A stretch of DNA of 35,766 nucleotides, taken from IMG/VR virus record IMGVR_UViG_3300045988_100376, one strand, 5' to 3'. A program made the translations under genes and the position numbers. This document shows positions 2,405-35,766 of this stretch, piece by piece (within the stretch, counting starts at the first letter, position 1; the number at the start of each line of letters is the position of its first letter). This DNA is from a virus. The notes beneath the pieces are model-generated. The model was not told the DNA's origin, did not search any database, and worked only from the letters and a program-made list of their open reading frames with translations.

Positions 2405-3272
2405 TTATAATAATCAAAACAATCAGATTCAGCAGAGAAAGCCGAAGTTTTCGTCAATGCTCCAGACACAGGCTTTTCAGAAAAGTCTTTCAAACTCAAT
2501 GAAAGACCCGAAGGAAATTCAGAAATTTACGGCGGCTATCACATCTGTGGTGAGTACAAATCCTGCACTCGAAGAATGCGATGCAGCTACAATTCTTTCG
2601 GCGGCTCTTTGCGGTCACTCTCTCGGACTTCCTCCGTCACCACAGCTCGGTCAGTATTATATGGTCCCGTTTAAGGACAGAAAGAATAAGCGTACAACAG
2701 CTACATTTGTTCTTGGCTATCGTGGCTATATTCAGCTTGCTATCCGTTCAGGACAGTATAAAAGACTTAATGTGGTGGAAATCAAAGAGAGAGAACTTCT
2801 TAATTGGGATCCGCTCACAGAAGAAATTACAATCAAAATGATTGAAGATGAAACAGAGCGTGAAACAGCTGAAACAATCGGATATTATGCTTATTTTCGC
2901 TATGTAAACGGCTTTGAGAAAGCTCTTTACTGGAGTAAGGATAAGATGAAACAGCACGCTATGAAGTATTCAGCCGGATATGCAAGCGATGTCAATAAGG
3001 GTACAAGTTACACTTTTTGGGCAAATGATTTTGATGCTATGGCAAAAAAGACAATGCTCAGACAGCTTATAAGCAAATGGGGTATTATGAGTGTTGAAAT
3101 GCAGACAGCATATGAAGCTGATAATCATATTATCAATGCTGACGGAACTCCCGATTATGACACCGATACCATGATTGATGCAGAAGTTCCTGCTGAAACA
3201 CCTGAAATTTACAATTCATCTTCATCTGAACCGGATGAAGAACAGTTCTCTATTGATGATCTTGCAGAATGA
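2397..3272 (+). CDS. recT: RecT-family single-strand annealing recombinase
   Basis: Motifs LGLPPSPQLGQYYMVPF, GYRGYIQLAIRSGQYK and MAKKTMLRQLISKWG are typical of RecT. Confidence 0.85.
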   Translation: MSNYNNQNNQIQQRKPKFSSMLQTQAFQKSLSNSMKDPKEIQKFTAAITSVVSTNPALEECDAATILSAALCGHSLGLPPSPQLGQYYMVPFKDRKNKRTTATFVLGYRGYIQLAIRSGQYKRLNVVEIKERELLNWDPLTEEITIKMIEDETERETAETIGYYAYFRYVNGFEKALYWSKDKMKQHAMKYSAGYASDVNKGTSYTFWANDFDAMAKKTMLRQLISKWGIMSVEMQTAYEADNHIINADGTPDYDTDTMIDAEVPAETPEIYNSSSSEPDEEQFSIDDLAE

Positions 3273-3273
3273 A

Positions 3274-3939
3274 ATGATTGATTTAGAGATAATAAGCACA
3301 GGCTCTAATGGCAACGCAGTCTTTCTTGACGGTCAGGTCTTGATTGACTGCGGAGTGCCGTTCAACAAACTTGTTGAGTGTGAAGTGGTTGACCGAGTTA
3401 AATATGTTTTTTTAACTCATCAACACGGAGACCATTGTAATGTTGCTACTCTAAAGCGACTGCTGTCCGAACACCCTTGTATTCGGATAATTTACCCCAA
3501 TTATCTTTGCAAAAAGCTTTTTTTATTAGGTGATACCTCCTTTCAATACAATTCTTTCATAGTCGCTCAGGATAAATGGTACTCAATCAGCAATATTACT
3601 TTTTCAGCAGTACCACTTCGGCATGATGTTCCTAATATCGGCTGGAAGTTACACTTCAACACTCAACAGGGGATATATAAAGTTATATACGCAACTGATA
3701 CATCGGAAATCGCTCATATAACAGCTAAGAACTACGATTTGTATCTTGTAGAAGCTAACTACTCAAAAACAGAATTACTTAATCGAATAAAAGATAAACG
3801 ATTGAAAGGTCAATATGTGTACGAAGATAGAGTTCTTCGTACACATTTGAGCAAAGAAAAGTGCGATGAATGGTTGTATCAAAATATGGGTAATAACAGT
3901 TTCTTCGTTTATATGCACCAACATGAGGACTTAGTATGA
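3274..3939 (+). CDS. MBL-fold metallo-hydrolase
   Basis: HQHGDH motif after NAVFLDG..LIDCG. I chose the ATG at 3274, just after the recT stop; the track ORF starts at 3175 inside recT. Confidence 0.7.
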   Translation: MIDLEIISTGSNGNAVFLDGQVLIDCGVPFNKLVECEVVDRVKYVFLTHQHGDHCNVATLKRLLSEHPCIRIIYPNYLCKKLFLLGDTSFQYNSFIVAQDKWYSISNITFSAVPLRHDVPNIGWKLHFNTQQGIYKVIYATDTSEIAHITAKNYDLYLVEANYSKTELLNRIKDKRLKGQYVYEDRVLRTHLSKEKCDEWLYQNMGNNSFFVYMHQHEDLV

Positions 3940-4586
3940 TTACATCAGCGAACATAGTATCTTATGACGGATATAACTTAATAGTAAGACCGCATGAGCG
4001 TATCGGCAGAGAACTTGCACAGAAACAAGTACATGAAATTGAACTCAGAATTGTTGACGGACGCACGATTTCTGCCGAACAGCGAAGAAAAATATACGCA
4101 ATCATCAGAGATATAGCATTTTGGTGCGGAGATAATCCCGAATGGATTAAAGAATATTTCAAGTTTAATTTTTGCGGTGAATTTGGCATTGAATACTTTT
4201 CGCTGTCTGATTGCGAAAAAAGCGTAGCAAGAGATTTCATAAGCTATCTGATAGATTTTTGTTTCTACCAAAATATCGGAACAAGAGATACTCTGCTTAA
4301 TGTTACAGATGATATAGGCAGATACTTGTACAGTTGTCTTGAAAATCGTAAGTGTGCAATATGCAATGCACCAGGTGAAGTTCATCATGTTGACAGAATT
4401 GGTATGGGGCGAGATAGGGAACAGATTGTACATATAGGATTAAAAGCTATATGCCTTTGCAGAAAGCACCACGATGAAGCACATCGGCACGAAAAAGAGC
4501 TGTTTGATAAGTACAAAATCTACGGTATAGAGCTTGATGAATATCTTTGTACAAAGCTGAAACTTAATACAAAAAGAAAGAGGTGA
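3936..4586 (+). CDS. Protein with a C-terminal HNH/zinc-finger nuclease-like motif
   Basis: CAICNAPGEVHHVDRIG...CLCRKHHDEAHRHE. RBS gagga. Confidence 0.5.
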   Translation: MITSANIVSYDGYNLIVRPHERIGRELAQKQVHEIELRIVDGRTISAEQRRKIYAIIRDIAFWCGDNPEWIKEYFKFNFCGEFGIEYFSLSDCEKSVARDFISYLIDFCFYQNIGTRDTLLNVTDDIGRYLYSCLENRKCAICNAPGEVHHVDRIGMGRDREQIVHIGLKAICLCRKHHDEAHRHEKELFDKYKIYGIELDEYLCTKLKLNTKRKR

Positions 4587-4594
4587 TACAGTGA

Positions 4595-5482
4595 ATGGCT
4601 GGACAACCAAAGCGAGGGCTTGACTTTGCGGCTTGGGATGTTCACTTGTTCGATGATGATGAGAGATTTGATGTGCTTATTGATGCACAGGGTTGGGACG
4701 GCTTTGGAGTATTTTTTTGGATTTGTACCAAAGCTTATGCAACAAATGGTTACTATTATGAGTGGCGAGAAGAAACCAGTGCTGCCACGATAGCGAAACG
4801 AATGAGCGGTGGAATTAAATCAGATACGGTAAATCAGGTAGTTAAGCTTTGCTTACGAATTGGGCTGTTTGATAACGGGCTGTTTGATAGGGAGAGCATA
4901 CTGACCAACAAAATGATGCAAGAACGATATATGTACGCTATCGAAAAACGCTCCGTGCGAGGTCGCACAATAAATAGATTATATTGGCTTTTGAAAACGG
5001 AAGAAACAAAGGCTTATATAGTTATACCTGAAAATGAGCATAATCTCTCCGAGAATGAACATAATCTCTCCGAGAACGACACAAAGAAAAGTAAAGTAAA
5101 GGAAAGTAAAGTAAATAGAAATAATTATTATGCGATGCCGTCTGCAAATGCAGCCGACACCGCCGGTGAAAATATTTTTATTACATTACCTTTGAACGAT
5201 AAGAGTAATTATCCAGTTTCAAAATCTGATGTTCAGCACTACAAAATTTTGTATCCTGCTGTTGATGTAGAACAACAATTGCGTTCGATGTTGGGGTGGC
5301 TCGAAGCTAATCCGAGCAGGAGAAAAACAAGAACCGGCATTAAAGGTTTCATTACTAAATGGCTTAATAAGGTCCAAGACAGAGGAGGTGTAGGATATGG
5401 ATTCAATCCAAGCGATAATGTCAAGAATAATGTCACCACAGCGAGCGGAGGAAATTATCCAACGGGCGAGAAAGTCTTCTAA
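4595..5482 (+). CDS. Phage replisome organizer / replication initiator (DUF4373 N-terminus, DnaD-like C-terminus)
   Basis: N-terminus GLDFAAWDVHLFDDD...GWDGFGVFFWI. C-terminus WLEANPSRRKTRTGIKGFITKWLNK. Lies upstream of the DnaC-like loader. Confidence 0.7.
   Translation: MAGQPKRGLDFAAWDVHLFDDDERFDVLIDAQGWDGFGVFFWICTKAYATNGYYYEWREETSAATIAKRMSGGIKSDTVNQVVKLCLRIGLFDNGLFDRESILTNKMMQERYMYAIEKRSVRGRTINRLYWLLKTEETKAYIVIPENEHNLSENEHNLSENDTKKSKVKESKVNRNNYYAMPSANAADTAGENIFITLPLNDKSNYPVSKSDVQHYKILYPAVDVEQQLRSMLGWLEANPSRRKTRTGIKGFITKWLNKVQDRGGVGYGFNPSDNVKNNVTTASGGNYPTGEKVF
5030..5116. repeat. Two sets of tandem direct repeats inside the organizer gene; candidate origin iterons
   Basis: The 21-bp unit (g/a)a(g/a)aatga(g/a)cataatctctcc appears twice, plus a partial third copy (5030-5077). 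The ~15-bp unit gaaagtaaagtaaa appears twice (5086-5116). AT-rich DNA follows. Confidence 0.6.
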
Positions 5483-6269: not shown

Positions 6270-6624
6270 AGCACAGGAGCAATGTAAACTCATTAAATGG
6301 GCGGATAAATGTGTGCAAATGAAAATACATCCTGAACTTTCAATGCTGTACGCTGTTCCAAATGGTGGCAGAAGAGATAAAGCCGAAGCCGCACATCTTA
6401 AAAGGCAAGGAGTTAGGGCAGGTGTTCCGGATTTATGCCTTGCTGTGCCAAAAGGTAAATATCACGGCTTATATATTGAGCTTAAAGTCGGCAACAATAA
6501 GACTTCTGAACATCAGGATAAATGGTTGCAGAATCTTTCACGGTGCGGATACGCCGTAAAGGTATGTTATGGCAGTACATCAGCAAAGCAGACAATTGAA
6601 AAATATCTGCAATTGGGTGATTGA
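6253..6624 (+). CDS. VRR-NUC domain nuclease
   Basis: PNGG...GVRAGVPDLCL...YIELKVG...HQ..W pattern. Confidence 0.75.
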   Translation: MKMMSEAQEQCKLIKWADKCVQMKIHPELSMLYAVPNGGRRDKAEAAHLKRQGVRAGVPDLCLAVPKGKYHGLYIELKVGNNKTSEHQDKWLQNLSRCGYAVKVCYGSTSAKQTIEKYLQLGD

Positions 6625-31028: not shown

Positions 31029-32066
31029 CTATATTTTGTTGATTGCATTCACCAATTCTTTGGGGTTAATGTGGGTGTAAACCTTTTCGGTCAAGTCCAT
31101 TTTCGACTTGTGACCGACTATTTTTTTGATGATTGTGTGGTTCACATTTGCCGATACAAGCATTGAAATGCAGGTGTGTCTTGTTTCGTGTATGGTGTGG
31201 TCTAAACCTAAATCGTTTTGCAGAGGTGTCCAGTAGTTGCGTTTAAAGTTATCGTATTTCAGCGGCTTGCCATTGGTGTTATTCAGAACATATCCACATT
31301 GAGAATCGCTGATGAATTTCTGCCAAAACGGCAATACTTTGTCTGCTATAGGCACGGTTCGTACACCTGAATCGGTTTTTGAACTTTCAACAAAGAAAGT
31401 CTGTTCGTCAAGGTTTACATTTGAAGTTTTCAGATTGAGAAGTTCAGACACACGCACTCCCGAATAAATCAGCATAAGCACTATTTTTACCGAATCAAGA
31501 TTTGAATATTCCCACAAAAGATTTATTTCGCTTTCCGAAAACTCCCTGCGTGCTCGTTTTGTTTCATCTGACTTGGCATTGATTTTCAATTCTTCTGCAA
31601 GATTGTTATGGAGTATATCGTGAAATATGCAGTATTCGTAGATTTTGTTCAACAGAATTTTAATTCGCCTAACCGATTGATAACCGTTGTTGCAGTTGTC
31701 GAGAACTCGTTGCATATCAATGATTTTTATATCGGACATCTTGCGATTGTATAACATTGAGCATTGTTTGTATGCCGCATTATACTGTCTTTTGGTGTTC
31801 GGATTTGTGTCTTCGGTGATGAACTCCATGTACCAAAGTTCATAAATTTCTGAAAAAGTGCGTCTTGCCGAATCAACATCAAACGGGTTTTGATTGTAAT
31901 CAGCAAGAGCGTTCAGAGCTTTCGGCTTGTTGGGAAAGTAGCCTATAACTCTGCGTTCCTGATTGCGTGTTTCTTTGTTGTATCCTATTGTCACGCAGGC
32001 AACCCACGGATTGCGCCTGTTTCCGCTCAGCTTATAAACAGAGCCGTAGCCGTTAGGCAGTTTCAT
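31029..32066 (-). CDS. int: Tyrosine integrase
   Basis: HETRHTCISML, VGHKS and a C-terminal Y in EKVYTH. ATG at 32066 is 8 nt after aaaggag. Confidence 0.9.
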   Translation of the reverse strand: MKLPNGYGSVYKLSGNRRNPWVACVTIGYNKETRNQERRVIGYFPNKPKALNALADYNQNPFDVDSARRTFSEIYELWYMEFITEDTNPNTKRQYNAAYKQCSMLYNRKMSDIKIIDMQRVLDNCNNGYQSVRRIKILLNKIYEYCIFHDILHNNLAEELKINAKSDETKRARREFSESEINLLWEYSNLDSVKIVLMLIYSGVRVSELLNLKTSNVNLDEQTFFVESSKTDSGVRTVPIADKVLPFWQKFISDSQCGYVLNNTNGKPLKYDNFKRNYWTPLQNDLGLDHTIHETRHTCISMLVSANVNHTIIKKIVGHKSKMDLTEKVYTHINPKELVNAINKI

Positions 32067-32086
32067 TTTATACACTCCTTTTGCTT

Positions 32087-32164: not shown

Positions 32165-32246
32165 GCTGTTTAAGTACCGTTGCACCCTATGTGTAATGGT
32201 TTCCGCTCTATCCTGTTGGCGCAGGGTAGGGCGGATTTTTTATTTT
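32165..32246 (+). ncRNA. Candidate ~80-nt small RNA, convergent with and overlapping the 3' end of the NYN transcript
   Basis: Bounded by the promoter at 32130-32158 and a 13-bp GC-rich hairpin (32203-32234, two G-U pairs) plus atttttta tttt. No RBS-led ORF inside. Confidence 0.45.
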
Positions 32247-32959
32247 ACTAAATTTTTAGCGTATAGCTTATCTTTCTTTAGTTCTTCTGAATCGGGGCGA
32301 CTTACTTTAGTTTCAAGTCCGTCAATATGTTCAAAGAGACTTGGTTTAATCGTGTGCCACATAGGGTCTAAAATAAAATCAATGCCCTCTCTGCGGGCGT
32401 GCTTAGCAGCAGGAACGAAGTCGCTGTCACCGGCAATTAATATAATACGATCAACTTGCTTTTTGTAAGATAAAGATGCAATATCCAAGCCTATTTTCAT
32501 ATCGACACCTTTCTGTTGTATATCAAGTTTGAAATGACTTTCTTCAAGGTCTGTAATGGCGAGTTTACCATTGCACAATTTCTTTACATATTCAGGCTTA
32601 ATTGTGTATCCAACGGTACTTTCTAAAAGTTCACCTTTTCTAAAAGCTACTTTTCTTTTAGATTTTAGTTCCTCAAAAAACTCCATAGACCATTTATACT
32701 GATCAGTTTTAGATAAATCAATTTGTTCTTTAGTGAGGGGATGATATACTTTCTTAGTTGAAGGAAGACAATCATAGTAGAAAATGCGATAAAGGTATTT
32801 TTCTTCTGAATAACTGTTGCGAGTTTTTTTATTCATGTAATGCCTACTGCAATATTGAACCAATTCTCTTGCCCTATCTTTTGGGTTTTTATCTCCCCAT
32901 AAATAATTTGCTCTTCTTAAATAAAAAGCACCGTCAACAAGGATAGCAATTCTTATCAT
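32240..32959 (-). CDS. NYN (LabA/DUF88-like, PIN-related) domain RNase candidate, 239 aa
   Basis: IAILVDGAF..., QQKGVDMKIGLDIASL and RIILIAGDSDFVPAAKHARREG. ATG at 32959 is 9 nt after aaggag. Confidence 0.7.
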   Translation of the reverse strand: MIRIAILVDGAFYLRRANYLWGDKNPKDRARELVQYCSRHYMNKKTRNSYSEEKYLYRIFYYDCLPSTKKVYHPLTKEQIDLSKTDQYKWSMEFFEELKSKRKVAFRKGELLESTVGYTIKPEYVKKLCNGKLAITDLEESHFKLDIQQKGVDMKIGLDIASLSYKKQVDRIILIAGDSDFVPAAKHARREGIDFILDPMWHTIKPSLFEHIDGLETKVSRPDSEELKKDKLYAKNLVK

Positions 32960-32978
32960 GCGAAAATTCTCCTTTATG

Positions 32979-33035
32979 TAAAAAACTCTTGGGGTCGACA
33001 CATCCCATATGGTGGGAGGTTTACTGCCAAGAGTT
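32979..33035 (-). promoter_or_regulatory. Leader hairpin plus U-tract (attenuator/terminator-like) directly upstream of the NYN RBS
   Basis: - sense: aactcttgg(33035-33027)...inner tccca/tggga stem...ccaagagtt(32992-32984), then uuuu, then acataaaggag. Confidence 0.5.
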
Positions 33036-33060
33036 CACACTAACAATAAAATTAAAATTT

Positions 33061-33079
33061 AATGTAGTAATACTACATT
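33061..33079. promoter_or_regulatory. Perfect 9-1-9 palindrome AATGTAGTA-A-TACTACATT at the predicted NYN transcription start (operator candidate)
   Basis: Read directly from the sequence. Lies just downstream of the - strand -10 element. Confidence 0.55.
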
Positions 33080-33082
33080 TTT

Positions 33083-33111
33083 ATTATATGCAAATTCAAG
33101 ACATTATTCAA
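33083..33111 (-). promoter_or_regulatory. Promoter TTGAAT-17-TATAAT for the NYN gene
   Basis: Reverse complement of attcaa (33106-33111) and of attata (33083-33088), with a 17-nt spacer. Confidence 0.55.
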
Positions 33112-33286
33112 TAGGTATTTTAAATTTGTAATAAATGTTGTTGAAATACAACAAAAAACAAAGTGCTTTATTGTAAAAATAATAGTGATATTTTAATAAA
33201 TGTTACTGTAAAATCCTACGGCTTTGCCAAAAATACAGAGCAAAGTCCAATTTTTAGGACAGTTAAAAAATTCTTGCAAATAGCGC

Positions 33287-33315
33287 TTGAACAATCAGAA
33301 CAAATGTTCTATAAT
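33287..33315 (+). promoter_or_regulatory. Promoter TTGAAC-17-TATAAT with a LexA (Cheo) box AGAACAAATGTTCT in the spacer
   Basis: ttgaac 33287-33292, tataat 33310-33315. GAAC-N4-GTTC at 33298-33309. Confidence 0.65.
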
Positions 33316-33356
33316 GAATGTGTAAAGAAAAATAAAAAGCTTTGGGGTGATTCTAT

Positions 33357-33464
33357 ATGGATTATAAAAAATACATAATCGAATTGATAAATAAAATCGA
33401 AGATGAAAAAACATTGAAAAAAATCTATGCAATAATAAATCGAATTTTTGTGAGAGGTGGGTGA
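33357..33464 (+). CDS. 35-aa ORF MDYKKYIIELINKIEDEKTLKKIYAIINRIFVRGG (candidate SOS-induced antirepressor)
   Basis: ggggtga lies 7 nt upstream of the ATG. Sits downstream of the LexA-box promoter and ends in a terminator stem. Below the ORF-track cutoff. Confidence 0.45.
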   Translation: MDYKKYIIELINKIEDEKTLKKIYAIINRIFVRGG

Positions 33465-33482
33465 CCACCTCTTTTATTTTTC
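33453..33482. terminator. Hairpin agaggtgg/ccacctct with a T-run on the + side, shared by convergent genes
   Basis: Read directly from the sequence. The repressor stop codon lies in the T-run. Confidence 0.7.
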
Positions 33483-33836
33483 TTTCTCAAAGATTTCTTT
33501 CAAGAAGTTTTTGAATATCATCTTATCTTCGTGACTTAATTTCAAATATGTTTCAATAATTTGTTTGTCGAGGTCATCAAGGTTAAATTCTTCTGACAAT
33601 TCATCAAGTATGTAATCCTCATCATCTTCAAACATTTCGCCCTCGCCCTCGGTAAGCCACATAAAGTTTACCCTGTACTCTTTGCAAACCTGTTTGATAA
33701 ATAATTCTTTGGGTTCAACAAGTTCATTTTCAATGTTTTTAATGACACTTCTCGAAACTCCGACACGCTCTCCAAACTCTGTTTGTGAGAGTTTTTTTAT
33801 TTTTCGCAGAGTTTTAAAACGCTCGCTTATGCTCAT
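33474..33836 (-). CDS. CI-like XRE-family repressor without a peptidase S24 domain (120 aa)
   Basis: LRKIKKLSQTEFGERVGVSRSVIKNIENE is the HTH. The C-terminus is acidic and helical. ATG at 33836 is 8 nt after gaggtga. Divergent from the early promoter. Confidence 0.8.
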   Translation of the reverse strand: MSISERFKTLRKIKKLSQTEFGERVGVSRSVIKNIENELVEPKELFIKQVCKEYRVNFMWLTEGEGEMFEDDEDYILDELSEEFNLDDLDKQIIETYLKLSHEDKMIFKNFLKEIFEKEK

Positions 33837-33877
33837 TTTATGTATCACCTCGCTGTAGAATTTTATCTGATGTATTC

Positions 33878-33906
33878 ATTATATACGGTATCCAATGGCT
33901 TGTCAA
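33878..33906 (-). promoter_or_regulatory. Consensus promoter TTGACA-17-TATAAT for the repressor gene
   Basis: Reverse complement of tgtcaa (33901-33906) and of attata (33878-33883). Confidence 0.65.
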
Positions 33907-33950
33907 GCCCAAAAAACAAAATATTTTTATTAAAACAGGGTTGACAAGCC
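33897..33950. promoter_or_regulatory. Two operator copies: GGCTTG-T-CAAGCC (33897-33909) and GGTTGACAAGCC (33939-33950)
   Basis: One copy overlaps each -35 element of the divergent promoters. Confidence 0.6.
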
Positions 33951-33969
33951 GTATTTTGAGGTATATAAT
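33941..33969 (+). promoter_or_regulatory. Consensus early promoter TTGACA-17-TATAAT
   Basis: ttgaca 33941-33946, tataat 33964-33969. Confidence 0.7.
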
Positions 33970-33999
33970 GGGTTTACAGACCAATAAGGAGGTGAATTT

Positions 34000-34158
34000 A
34001 TGATTTATACGGACAAAGCAATCGAAAAAGAAACCGAGCGGCAGGATGTCAGATGTTTGTACGAAGAACTCTTGAAAAACGCAACAACAGAACAGAAGGA
34101 AAAAGCTTATATAGCAGCAACAGCGTTCTTGCTCGGTGCACAGCAGAAAACAGCGTAG
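34000..34158 (+). CDS. 52-aa first early ORF
   Basis: aaggaggtg lies upstream of the ATG at 34000. Below the ORF-track cutoff. Confidence 0.5.
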   Translation: MIYTDKAIEKETERQDVRCLYEELLKNATTEQKEKAYIAATAFLLGAQQKTA

Positions 34159-35654: not shown

Positions 35655-35766
35655 ATGGAAGTAATAATAATTTTAGGACTACTAATGCTTTGCACAGCTT
35701 TTGTTTCAGCAGTATTAGCAATAAAAATAGTAGCCGCCCATTTGTATAAAACAATAGACAGCTACC
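35655..35766 (+). CDS. 5' part of the 57-aa small membrane protein that continues across the junction (equivalent to 1-147)
   Basis: gaggtga RBS, ATG at 35655. The frame is continuous with frame 1 at the window start. Confidence 0.5.
   Translation, partial: MEVIIILGLLMLCTAFVSAVLAIKIVAAHLYKTIDSY
35682..35766. repeat. Terminal direct repeat, identical to 1-85
   Basis: Direct comparison of both ends. Confidence 0.95.

Follow-up and report, generated by a model that had tools for sequence, protein, structure and literature searches.

Damage induction of prophages with uncleavable repressors is known for a few model phages. The closest described system is the AimX-AimC(-AimL) module of 'extended arbitrium' Bacillus phages, reported by Kabel et al. 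in a preprint of November 2025 (bioRxiv 10.1101/2025.11.23.689978). AimC is a short helix-turn-helix (HTH) repressor that lacks an autocleavage domain, and AimX blocks its C-terminal oligomerization domain. In phage phi106, AimX is encoded by a 29-amino-acid (aa) open reading frame (ORF) that lies just downstream of a LexA site and converges on aimC. Start-to-stop and recoded aimX alleles excluded an antisense mechanism in that study, in which the AimX proteins are described as highly divergent and the system is compared with SinI/SinR by its authors. A second preprint of the same month, by Chmielowska et al. (bioRxiv 10.1101/2025.11.27.690993), describes Sar, a small LexA-controlled antirepressor of SPbeta-like phages. 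A report on Vibrio phages presents small-ORF (smORF) modules whose small proteins inactivate a repressor and decide induction independently of DNA damage (Nature 2023, PMC10432266). Here we analyze an arrangement of this kind in a 35,766-nucleotide (nt) viral DNA (IMG/VR record IMGVR_UViG_3300045988_100376, the whole of which is called the window below). A 35-aa ORF, preceded by a LexA box, converges there on the gene of a 120-aa CI-type prophage repressor without an S24 autopeptidase domain. By analogy with the AimX-AimC module, we think it reasonably likely that the locus is the SOS input of the phage's lysis-lysogeny switch, and that the peptide inactivates the adjacent repressor via its C-terminal domain.

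As in the AimX-AimC module, a very small ORF (29-80 aa there, 35 aa here) converges on the 3' end of a repressor gene. The repressor is a short HTH protein (80-140 aa there) without autocleavage and with a helical C-terminal tail, which is predicted here, and its gene is divergent from the early lytic operon. The window differs from the Bacillus module in that the small ORF abuts the repressor gene without overlap, with 9 nt between the two stop codons. No HTH domain is detectable in the first lytic ORF here, and the hosts are gut Clostridia (Ruminococcus/Acutalibacteraceae, Mediterraneibacter gnavus) rather than Bacillus. Nor are aimR and aimP present: no + strand ORF of AimR size lies upstream of the peptide gene, and the interval between the integrase and the peptide holds an opposite-strand NYN gene and short overlapping frames that look spurious. 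Because the upstream neighbor is the NYN gene and aimR and aimP are absent, control here would be exerted by LexA alone. A search with the peptide profile against PDB sequences, which should include the AimX chain of 9sf2, returned nothing at E <= 10.

Promoter, LexA box and coding status of the small ORF

A predicted sigma-A-type promoter, with its -35 hexamer TTGAAC at 33287-33292 and its -10 hexamer TATAAT at 33310-33315, precedes the small ORF (Table 1), and transcription would start near 33322. The 17-nt spacer is occupied by AGAACAAATGTTCT, a perfect match to the Gram-positive LexA palindrome GAAC-N4-GTTC that overlaps the first base of the -10 hexamer. A first-pass annotation, made from the letters of the window, had reported a perfect box at 33297-33310 filling the spacer of a TTGAAC-17-TATAAT promoter, and both elements are present where it placed them. 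The window has no second perfect GAAC-N4-GTTC. By chance, 0.39 such sites are expected over this length and 32% of shuffled windows hold at least one, so the box taken alone is weak evidence. One-mismatch LexA sites are rarer than expected (7 versus 13). What raises the box above chance is its siting inside a promoter and its recurrence in relatives with diverged surroundings. Clostridial LexA operators have the form GAACnnnnGTTC or GAACnnnnGTTT, and a GTTT half-site is tolerated in clostridia, being the form found at lexA and recA of C. difficile (PMC4234289).

Downstream of this promoter, no + strand ORF of 25 aa or more begins other than the 35-aa ORF. In the relatives read, purine-rich runs of G likewise precede the start codon (GAGGGA, AGGGG, AGGAGG, GGGGGA and GGGAGGG). 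The GTG-start variants in L004 and L014 have a weaker Shine-Dalgarno-like sequence, only GAAAGAAG (L-numbers denote related loci or scaffolds compared with the window, and P-numbers denote proteins). Compared with the allele in L023, which accompanies 88%-identical repressors, the ORF shows 16 nt differences, 13 of them at third codon positions; 12 codons differ synonymously and 3 nonsynonymously. This substitution pattern indicates that the ORF is under codon-level purifying selection as a protein. More distant relatives, with repressor identity falling from 81% to 60%, keep the peptide with conservative substitutions. On these grounds, the ORF is in all likelihood translated. The AlphaFold2 (AF2) model of the peptide is a two-helix hairpin (residues 3-13 and 17-33) with a predicted local distance difference test score (pLDDT) of 87.5. 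The peptide is amphipathic and charged; it is neither a membrane toxin nor YneA-like.

The ORF runs into a hairpin at 33452-33473 that is followed by TTATTTTT, and the + strand RNA folds at -16.9 kcal/mol (z = -3.7). The repressor stop codon (33474-33476, - strand) abuts this hairpin on the other side. Read on the - strand, directly after that stop, the same hairpin folds at -13.1 kcal/mol and leads into CACAAAAAUUCG; because no U-run follows, it should be a poor terminator in that direction. These features bear out what had been annotated at first pass, namely a single ORF led by a ribosome-binding site (33357-33464), ending in a hairpin common to it and the convergent repressor gene, with weak termination in the - direction. 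An Rfam scan of 32900-34050 gave nothing at gathering score, and a known small RNA or riboswitch at the ORF was therefore rejected. A promoter-like site on the - strand within the ORF (33390->33361) was also set aside as a probable by-product of coding sequence, since, on the opposite strand, its -10 element coincides with part of the Asp-Tyr codons, and since its -35 element differs in the L023 allele. A natural 11-nt deletion frameshifts the peptide ORF in L005 (about 6380-6440), on a 378-kilobase (kb) contig whose prophage is otherwise intact. L005 is a candidate SOS-blind variant.

The peptide belongs to a large family of 29-40 aa, with sequences beginning MDYKK, whose members come from gut metagenomes and from cultured Ruminococcus gnavus phages. 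A phmmer search against 1.84 billion representative proteins returned 18 clusters at E < 1e-3, nearly all of them 34-40 aa long, with a few tandem doubles among them. When metagenomes were scanned at the DNA level with a degenerate pattern for MDYKxxIIE, which itself enforces the N-terminal motif, at least 122 matches at 120 or more loci were obtained. Of the matches listed, to which the family counts below are confined, 77 of 122 are complete ORFs of 29-40 aa that score against the family profile. No Pfam family lies above threshold for the peptide; the only hit, DUF7674, falls below the cut-off (E = 0.009-0.02) and is not credible at E of about 0.01. PHROG gave no match, and a Foldseek search of the peptide model against the PDB gave noise only. 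Five R. gnavus phage records carry a homologue, which is unannotated in four and a 'hypothetical protein' in the fifth. In phage phiRgIBDN1, the unannotated ORF MDYKSKIIELINGISNTAKLEYLYYVIRSFLKG stands tail-to-tail with gp22, a 114-aa HTH protein. Distant members (P0121 and P0124, 50-54% identical in the peptide-family alignment) lie inside early phage operons (L059, 2472-2579; L060; L061), one of them between a 716-aa primase-like gene and RusA. These L059, L060 and L061 members have no LexA box upstream, and no convergent repressor was called alongside them.

Across close and distant relatives, the LexA box is retained despite differing flanks, inner bases and position. The promoter is kept at the same place in relatives with differing -35 hexamers (TTGCAA, TTGACA and TTGAAT). 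In the variant with TIR cargo, where the upstream cassette has been swapped, the promoter reads TTGCAA-atatCGAACGAATGTTC-TATAAT and the box remains; hybrid promoter forms between NYN-type and TIR-type relatives also occur. Where the repressors are 60-71% identical, the L034/L038/L040/L044 lineage keeps a perfect box, and L031 and L033 have AAAC or GTTT variants in the same register. The promoter in phiRgIBDN1 is flanked by two boxes, AGAACAAATGTTCG before the -35 hexamer and CGAACAAGTGTTTT past the -10 hexamer, and scaffold L063 has a perfect box, CGAACGAATGTTCG, directly after the -10 hexamer. The box may thus stand in the spacer, just after the -10 element, or as a pair around the promoter.

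A perfect box lies no more than 150 nt upstream of 35 of the 75 family genes in the metagenome sample, and the count rises to 45 of 75 when GTTT and AAAC variants are included. Elsewhere in the same loci, 7 perfect boxes occur in 588 kb, or 0.0018 per 150 nt, which puts the enrichment upstream of family genes at more than 200-fold. The 35 box-bearing upstream sequences are all distinct and represent at least four promoter layouts. These data indicate that LexA control of the family is a selected feature, conserved beyond shared ancestry, and LexA very probably regulates the small-ORF promoter of the window. In the rumen Ruminococcaceae relative L014 (2100-2170), which keeps the peptide, an 8-base-pair (bp) inverted repeat, GTTCGATTgaaAATCGAAC, overlaps the -35 hexamer and may be an operator for another regulator.

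The convergent repressor and its coupling to the peptide

The only Pfam matches of the repressor are HTH_3 and HTH_19, at residues 5-67, and the Pfam scan found no Peptidase_S24 domain, in agreement with the earlier description of an HTH protein that lacks this domain. Its AF2 model (pLDDT 87.6) comprises an Xre-type HTH domain (residues 1-67), an acidic linker, and helices at 73-84, 88-99 and 102-118. Full-length Foldseek matches include 9sf2_A, the phage Phi106 repressor with AimX (rank 5, E = 8.8e-4); 1b0n_A, from the SinR-SinI complex (rank 9, E = 3.3e-3); and 9iaq, AimC of BMBtp14 (rank 12, E = 4.4e-3). The repressor-family profile also matches 9sf2_A by sequence (E = 1.9e-6). An identical repressor protein occurs in 340 blocks of a public assembly collection, with the prophage on metagenome contigs of up to 1.1 Mb.

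The pairing of peptide and repressor recurs through the family. A convergent ORF of at least 50 aa, ending within -60 to +150 nt, follows 68 of the 77 family genes, and 44 of these 68 ORFs match an Xre-HTH profile built from the repressor family of the window. A Pfam scan covered ten diverse partners, which fall into at least five tail types when we group the sequences ourselves; all ten are HTH-only proteins of 107-129 aa without S24. Eleven pairwise comparisons combine tails of at least 85% identity and peptides of 88-100% identity with HTH domains at 50% identity or less. The same peptide paired with a different tail was never seen in the pairwise comparisons. Because tails and peptides stay alike despite HTH divergence, the peptide appears to travel with the tail and not with DNA-binding specificity, and this co-inheritance fits a tail-directed antirepressor. 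In L120 versus L136, L038 versus L040/L044, and other pairs, HTH domains no more than 50% identical are joined to identical tails and accompanied by the same peptide. Given unrelated HTH domains on shared tails, recombination seems to swap the immunity (HTH) module at the HTH/tail junction.

Whether the peptide copies the tail it converges on is a separate matter. The first-pass annotation had seen a resemblance between the peptide and the repressor C-terminus, which formal alignment does not support. BLASTP of the peptide against the repressor gave no alignment in the tail, and hhalign of the two families gave a probability of 0.2%. In a Smith-Waterman shuffle test on six cognate pairs, the window pair scored p = 0.13; one pair fell below p = 0.05, and the alignments were inconsistent in the five other cognate pairs. 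A sequence mimic of the repressor tail was therefore rejected. The helical hairpins are of similar size, with 11 and 17 residues in the peptide versus 12 and 17 in the last two helices of the tail, although in these models the shared hairpin is generic. That the peptide occupies the oligomerization surface is plausible by analogy, not by homology.

Proposed mechanism and competing explanations

In the proposed mechanism, host LexA bound to AGAACAAATGTTCT inside the promoter (33287-33315) would keep that promoter shut in a lysogen, and the 120-aa HTH repressor, lacking S24, would hold the divergent lytic promoter off via two near-palindromic operators. DNA damage would activate RecA, LexA would cleave itself, and the promoter would fire. 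A transcript of about 150 nt, terminated at the hairpin (33452-33473), would then be translated into the two-helix peptide. The peptide would bind the repressor, most probably on its C-terminal helical oligomerization domain, and block the formation of the dimer or tetramer needed for operator binding, so that the lytic operon would be derepressed. We infer LexA binding, peptide-repressor binding and its site, and the effect on prophage induction. The first-pass proposal of a small LexA-driven antirepressor gains strong indirect support from the finding that the box, the peptide and a convergent repressor without S24 recur together across diverged lineages. For AimX/AimC of Bacillus phages, this layout has experimental validation.

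Several observations weigh against this proposal. About 40% of the sampled family genes have no recognizable box, L014 has lost the right LexA half-site, and LexA specificity for Ruminococcus/Acutalibacteraceae is extrapolated from Bacillus and Clostridium. Some distant members lie outside LexA control, in early operons by RusA or in arrays. No significant sequence similarity links the peptide to the repressor tail, to AimX or to SinI. The overall peptide-tail correlations are weak (rho 0.29-0.33), and the co-inheritance of peptide and tail may be linkage because the peptide gene and the tail DNA are adjacent. Finally, the P0036 lineage (L036 and L037), whose tail is almost identical to that of P0030, carries an unrelated convergent ORF of 50 aa, MKDKMNNFESAIELLETLKTMTSDEQKLALMLIKGYSAGIKVKNANVGTV (about 2887-3039, - strand of the locus), under a consensus promoter without a LexA box.

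Some of these points would suit a genuine SOS-induced phage protein whose target is something other than the adjacent repressor, such as host LexA or RecA (as for GIL01 gp7), replication, cell division, or expression of the cargo or integrase. We regard this alternative as unlikely. The distant members in early replication operons, with neither a repressor nearby nor a LexA box, are what it would lead one to expect, as is the lack of peptide-tail sequence similarity. The helix DYKKxIIE is also almost invariant across very different tails, though the search pattern enforced this motif. The pairing described above argues in the opposite direction: 68 of 77 members stand tail-to-tail with a convergent ORF, 10 of 10 partners scanned are HTH proteins without S24, and the peptide stays with the repressor tail through exchanges of the HTH domain. 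Within the window, no other SOS route is visible, the LexA box is the only one in 35.8 kb, and no Bro/Ant gene adjoins the switch. The amphipathic, charged character of the peptide also differs from that of a membrane toxin or a YneA-like protein.

A product that acts as transcription or RNA rather than as a peptide is improbable. It could take the form of interference with repressor read-through, antisense RNA, or a LexA roadblock on the - strand. As the hairpin terminates poorly on the - strand, transcription from the repressor gene probably continues antisense across the ORF toward the NYN/TIR cargo and the integrase, and the promoter-like site at 33390->33361 lies on the same strand. An antisense role was, moreover, originally proposed for aimX (10.1101/2025.11.23.689978). 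However, substitutions in the + frame follow the pattern of a constrained protein, the relatives read have Shine-Dalgarno-like sequences ahead of the start, and the + strand terminator would stop transcripts before the repressor coding sequence. The box always lies in or beside the peptide's own promoter, at varying exact positions, and the start-to-stop and recoded alleles of AimX place function in the protein and not the RNA. That box, promoter and ORF are a functionless coincidence in AT-rich intergenic DNA, where short ORFs are common and a perfect box turns up in a third of shuffles (32%), is a negligible prospect, effectively refuted by codon-level selection, the more than 200-fold box enrichment, the recurrent convergent repressor, several independent promoter layouts, and a peptide family found database-wide.

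Genome context, peptide arrays and comparison with known systems

The window is a circular assembly of 39.8% GC with an exact 85-bp terminal direct repeat (1-85 and 35682-35766). The repeat implies a complete circular phage genome of about 35.7 kb, which is temperate and siphovirus-like. The switch is ordered as integrase (-), NYN cargo (-), small ORF (+), repressor (-), divergent promoters and early operon (+), with the features located as listed in Table 1.

Table 1. Predicted features of the switch region, in window coordinates
Feature	Position	Strand	Remarks
Integrase	31029-32075	-	
NYN-domain cargo gene, between switch and integrase	32240..32959	-	Variable slot in relatives
Sigma-A-type promoter, TTGAAC-17-TATAAT	33287..33315	+	Predicted to drive the small ORF; 10/12 consensus positions
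Putative LexA (Cheo/DinR-type) operator, AGAACAAATGTTCT	33297..33310	.	Core GAAC-N4-GTTC at 33298-33309
Shine-Dalgarno sequence, GGGGTG	33344..33349	+	7 nt before ATG
Gene for 35-aa peptide, MDYKKYIIELINKIEDEKTLKKIYAIINRIFVRGG	33357..33464	+	Proposed SOS-induced antirepressor; ATG 33357, TGA 33462-33464
Intrinsic terminator of small-ORF transcript	33452..33483	+	9-bp GC-rich stem and U-run
CI-type prophage repressor, 120 aa	33474..33836	-	Pfam HTH; PHROG repressor families; stop codon 33474-33476
Mirror-symmetric divergent promoter region	33877..33970	.	Promoters form a 33-nt mirror pair
P(repressor), TTGACA-17-TATAAT	33906->33878	-	Perfect consensus
P(lytic), TTGACA-17-TATAAT	33941-33969	+	Perfect consensus
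First ORF of early lytic operon, 52 aa, 'cro position'	34000..34158	+	Called in all related loci

Each -35 hexamer of the divergent promoters is overlapped by a near-palindrome, GGCTTGTCAAGCC (33897-33909) or GGGTTGACAAGCC (33938-33950). The two lie 41 bp apart and are presumed to be the repressor operators. Farther downstream than the first lytic ORF, related prophages carry a 69-aa HTH_3 gene that is absent from the window genome. A nucleotide search of cultured-phage records with a 1.2-kb region gave no match. A scan of GTDB genomes yielded only four loci, and the protein names of relatives point to a human-gut host no more narrowly than Ruminococcus/Acutalibacteraceae.

Between the integrase and the repressor/peptide pair lies a hotspot for cargo genes (32240-33290 in the window; 6363-9000 in L004-L013). 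The window has NYN there; prophages that are otherwise nearly identical carry CAP12-PCTIR TIR, Fic, ThsB-TIR plus SLATT, or DUF8426. The start codon of the small ORF marks the edge of the cassette, and TIR-type variants start with GTG (MNDYKK...). Directly upstream of the ribosome-binding site of NYN, the leader at 32979-33039 (- strand) folds into a long hairpin, ACTCTTGG...CCAAGAGT, with a T-run after it. It has a weak, sub-threshold Rfam match to TEG147 (30 bits versus a gathering score of 56, E = 0.001) and may control the cargo gene as a terminator or attenuator.

Some small integrative elements carry two to four different 'MDYKK' peptides in tandem, co-directional, just upstream of a tyrosine integrase and at the element's edge beside host genes. 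Such arrays are found at L165 (2202-2640), L183 (1069-1391, - strand of the locus), L181 (803-1244) and L167 (3309-3630, followed by an integrase at 3688-4836), with further arrays in L180, L156, L084, L101 and L123. Fused double peptides also occur (P0114, P0117, P0118 and P0127). Each array member resembles the single peptide beside a different prophage repressor type, and no LexA box was found within 150 nt upstream of the scored array members. The arrays are consistent with each peptide having its own repressor type as target. If that is so, they may be multi-target antirepressor arsenals, serving anti-immunity or the induction of helper prophages. A precedent is satellite P4, whose epsilon protein derepresses the helper prophage P2.

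A wider reading, which we offer tentatively and hold to be possible rather than probable, is that the 'MDYKK' peptides form a large unannotated family of SOS-controlled antirepressors, perhaps the main route of damage induction for gut-Clostridia prophages whose repressors lack S24. Peptide gene and tail may then move as one cassette, joined by recombination to different HTH immunity domains, and the arrays could act on several resident prophage types together, inducing them or escaping their immunity. In the literature searched, no description of damage induction with uncleavable repressors was found for gut Clostridia; a search on LexA and antirepressors in Lachnospiraceae returned reviews only, and the R. 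gnavus phage paper (PMC10072058) mentions neither LexA nor the peptide ORF. Interest in the family lies in its being widespread, unannotated and testable in cultured phages, and hundreds of gut metagenome assemblies contain the cognate repressor in identical form. Because homologous modules are present in cultured R. gnavus phages, experiments are feasible. If the proposal is true, the peptide family would mark SOS-inducible prophages in metagenomes from the gut and would offer a handle for inducing or locking specific prophages.

Apart from AimX-AimC, the likeness is greatest to SinI-SinR of B. subtilis (1b0n), in which an Xre-type HTH protein with C-terminal helices is antagonized by a small helical heterodimer partner. 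SinI is homologous to the SinR C-terminus, whereas peptide-tail similarity is not significant here, and SinI is chromosomal and not LexA-controlled. The Pfam SinI domain has no match at E <= 1 in the peptide or the repressor. Tum of coliphage 186, AntC of N15, GfoA/GfhA of Gifsy (PMC3121763) and Ant of SPC32H share the logic of a LexA-repressed promoter that drives an antirepressor against a repressor RecA cannot cleave. The first-pass annotation had cited Tum, N15 and Gifsy for this logic, and rightly; as the nearest relatives, they give way to AimX/AimC and SinI/SinR. Their sequences are unrelated, their box is the Gram-negative CTGT-N8-ACAG, and their genes are positioned otherwise; the Gifsy antirepressors, moreover, act in trans on several prophages. 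These proteins are several times larger than the 35-aa peptide.

Sar and its repressor SroF share with the present locus a Firmicutes phage setting and a repressor that is not cleaved by way of RecA. They differ in that SroF is a monomeric repressor of integrase fold and Sar is a DNA mimic, compared with an Xre-HTH protein with a tail here. The smORF modules are reportedly driven by a dedicated transcription factor, in a linear plasmid-like Vibrio phage with a different gene layout. The locus thus represents a known kind of system, exemplified by Tum, Gifsy, N15, AimX and Sar, of which the peptide family, its spread in gut Firmicutes and the arbitrium-free form appear undescribed. If the proposal is true, a mechanism of the AimX or SinI type would be widespread outside Bacillus and independent of arbitrium signaling.

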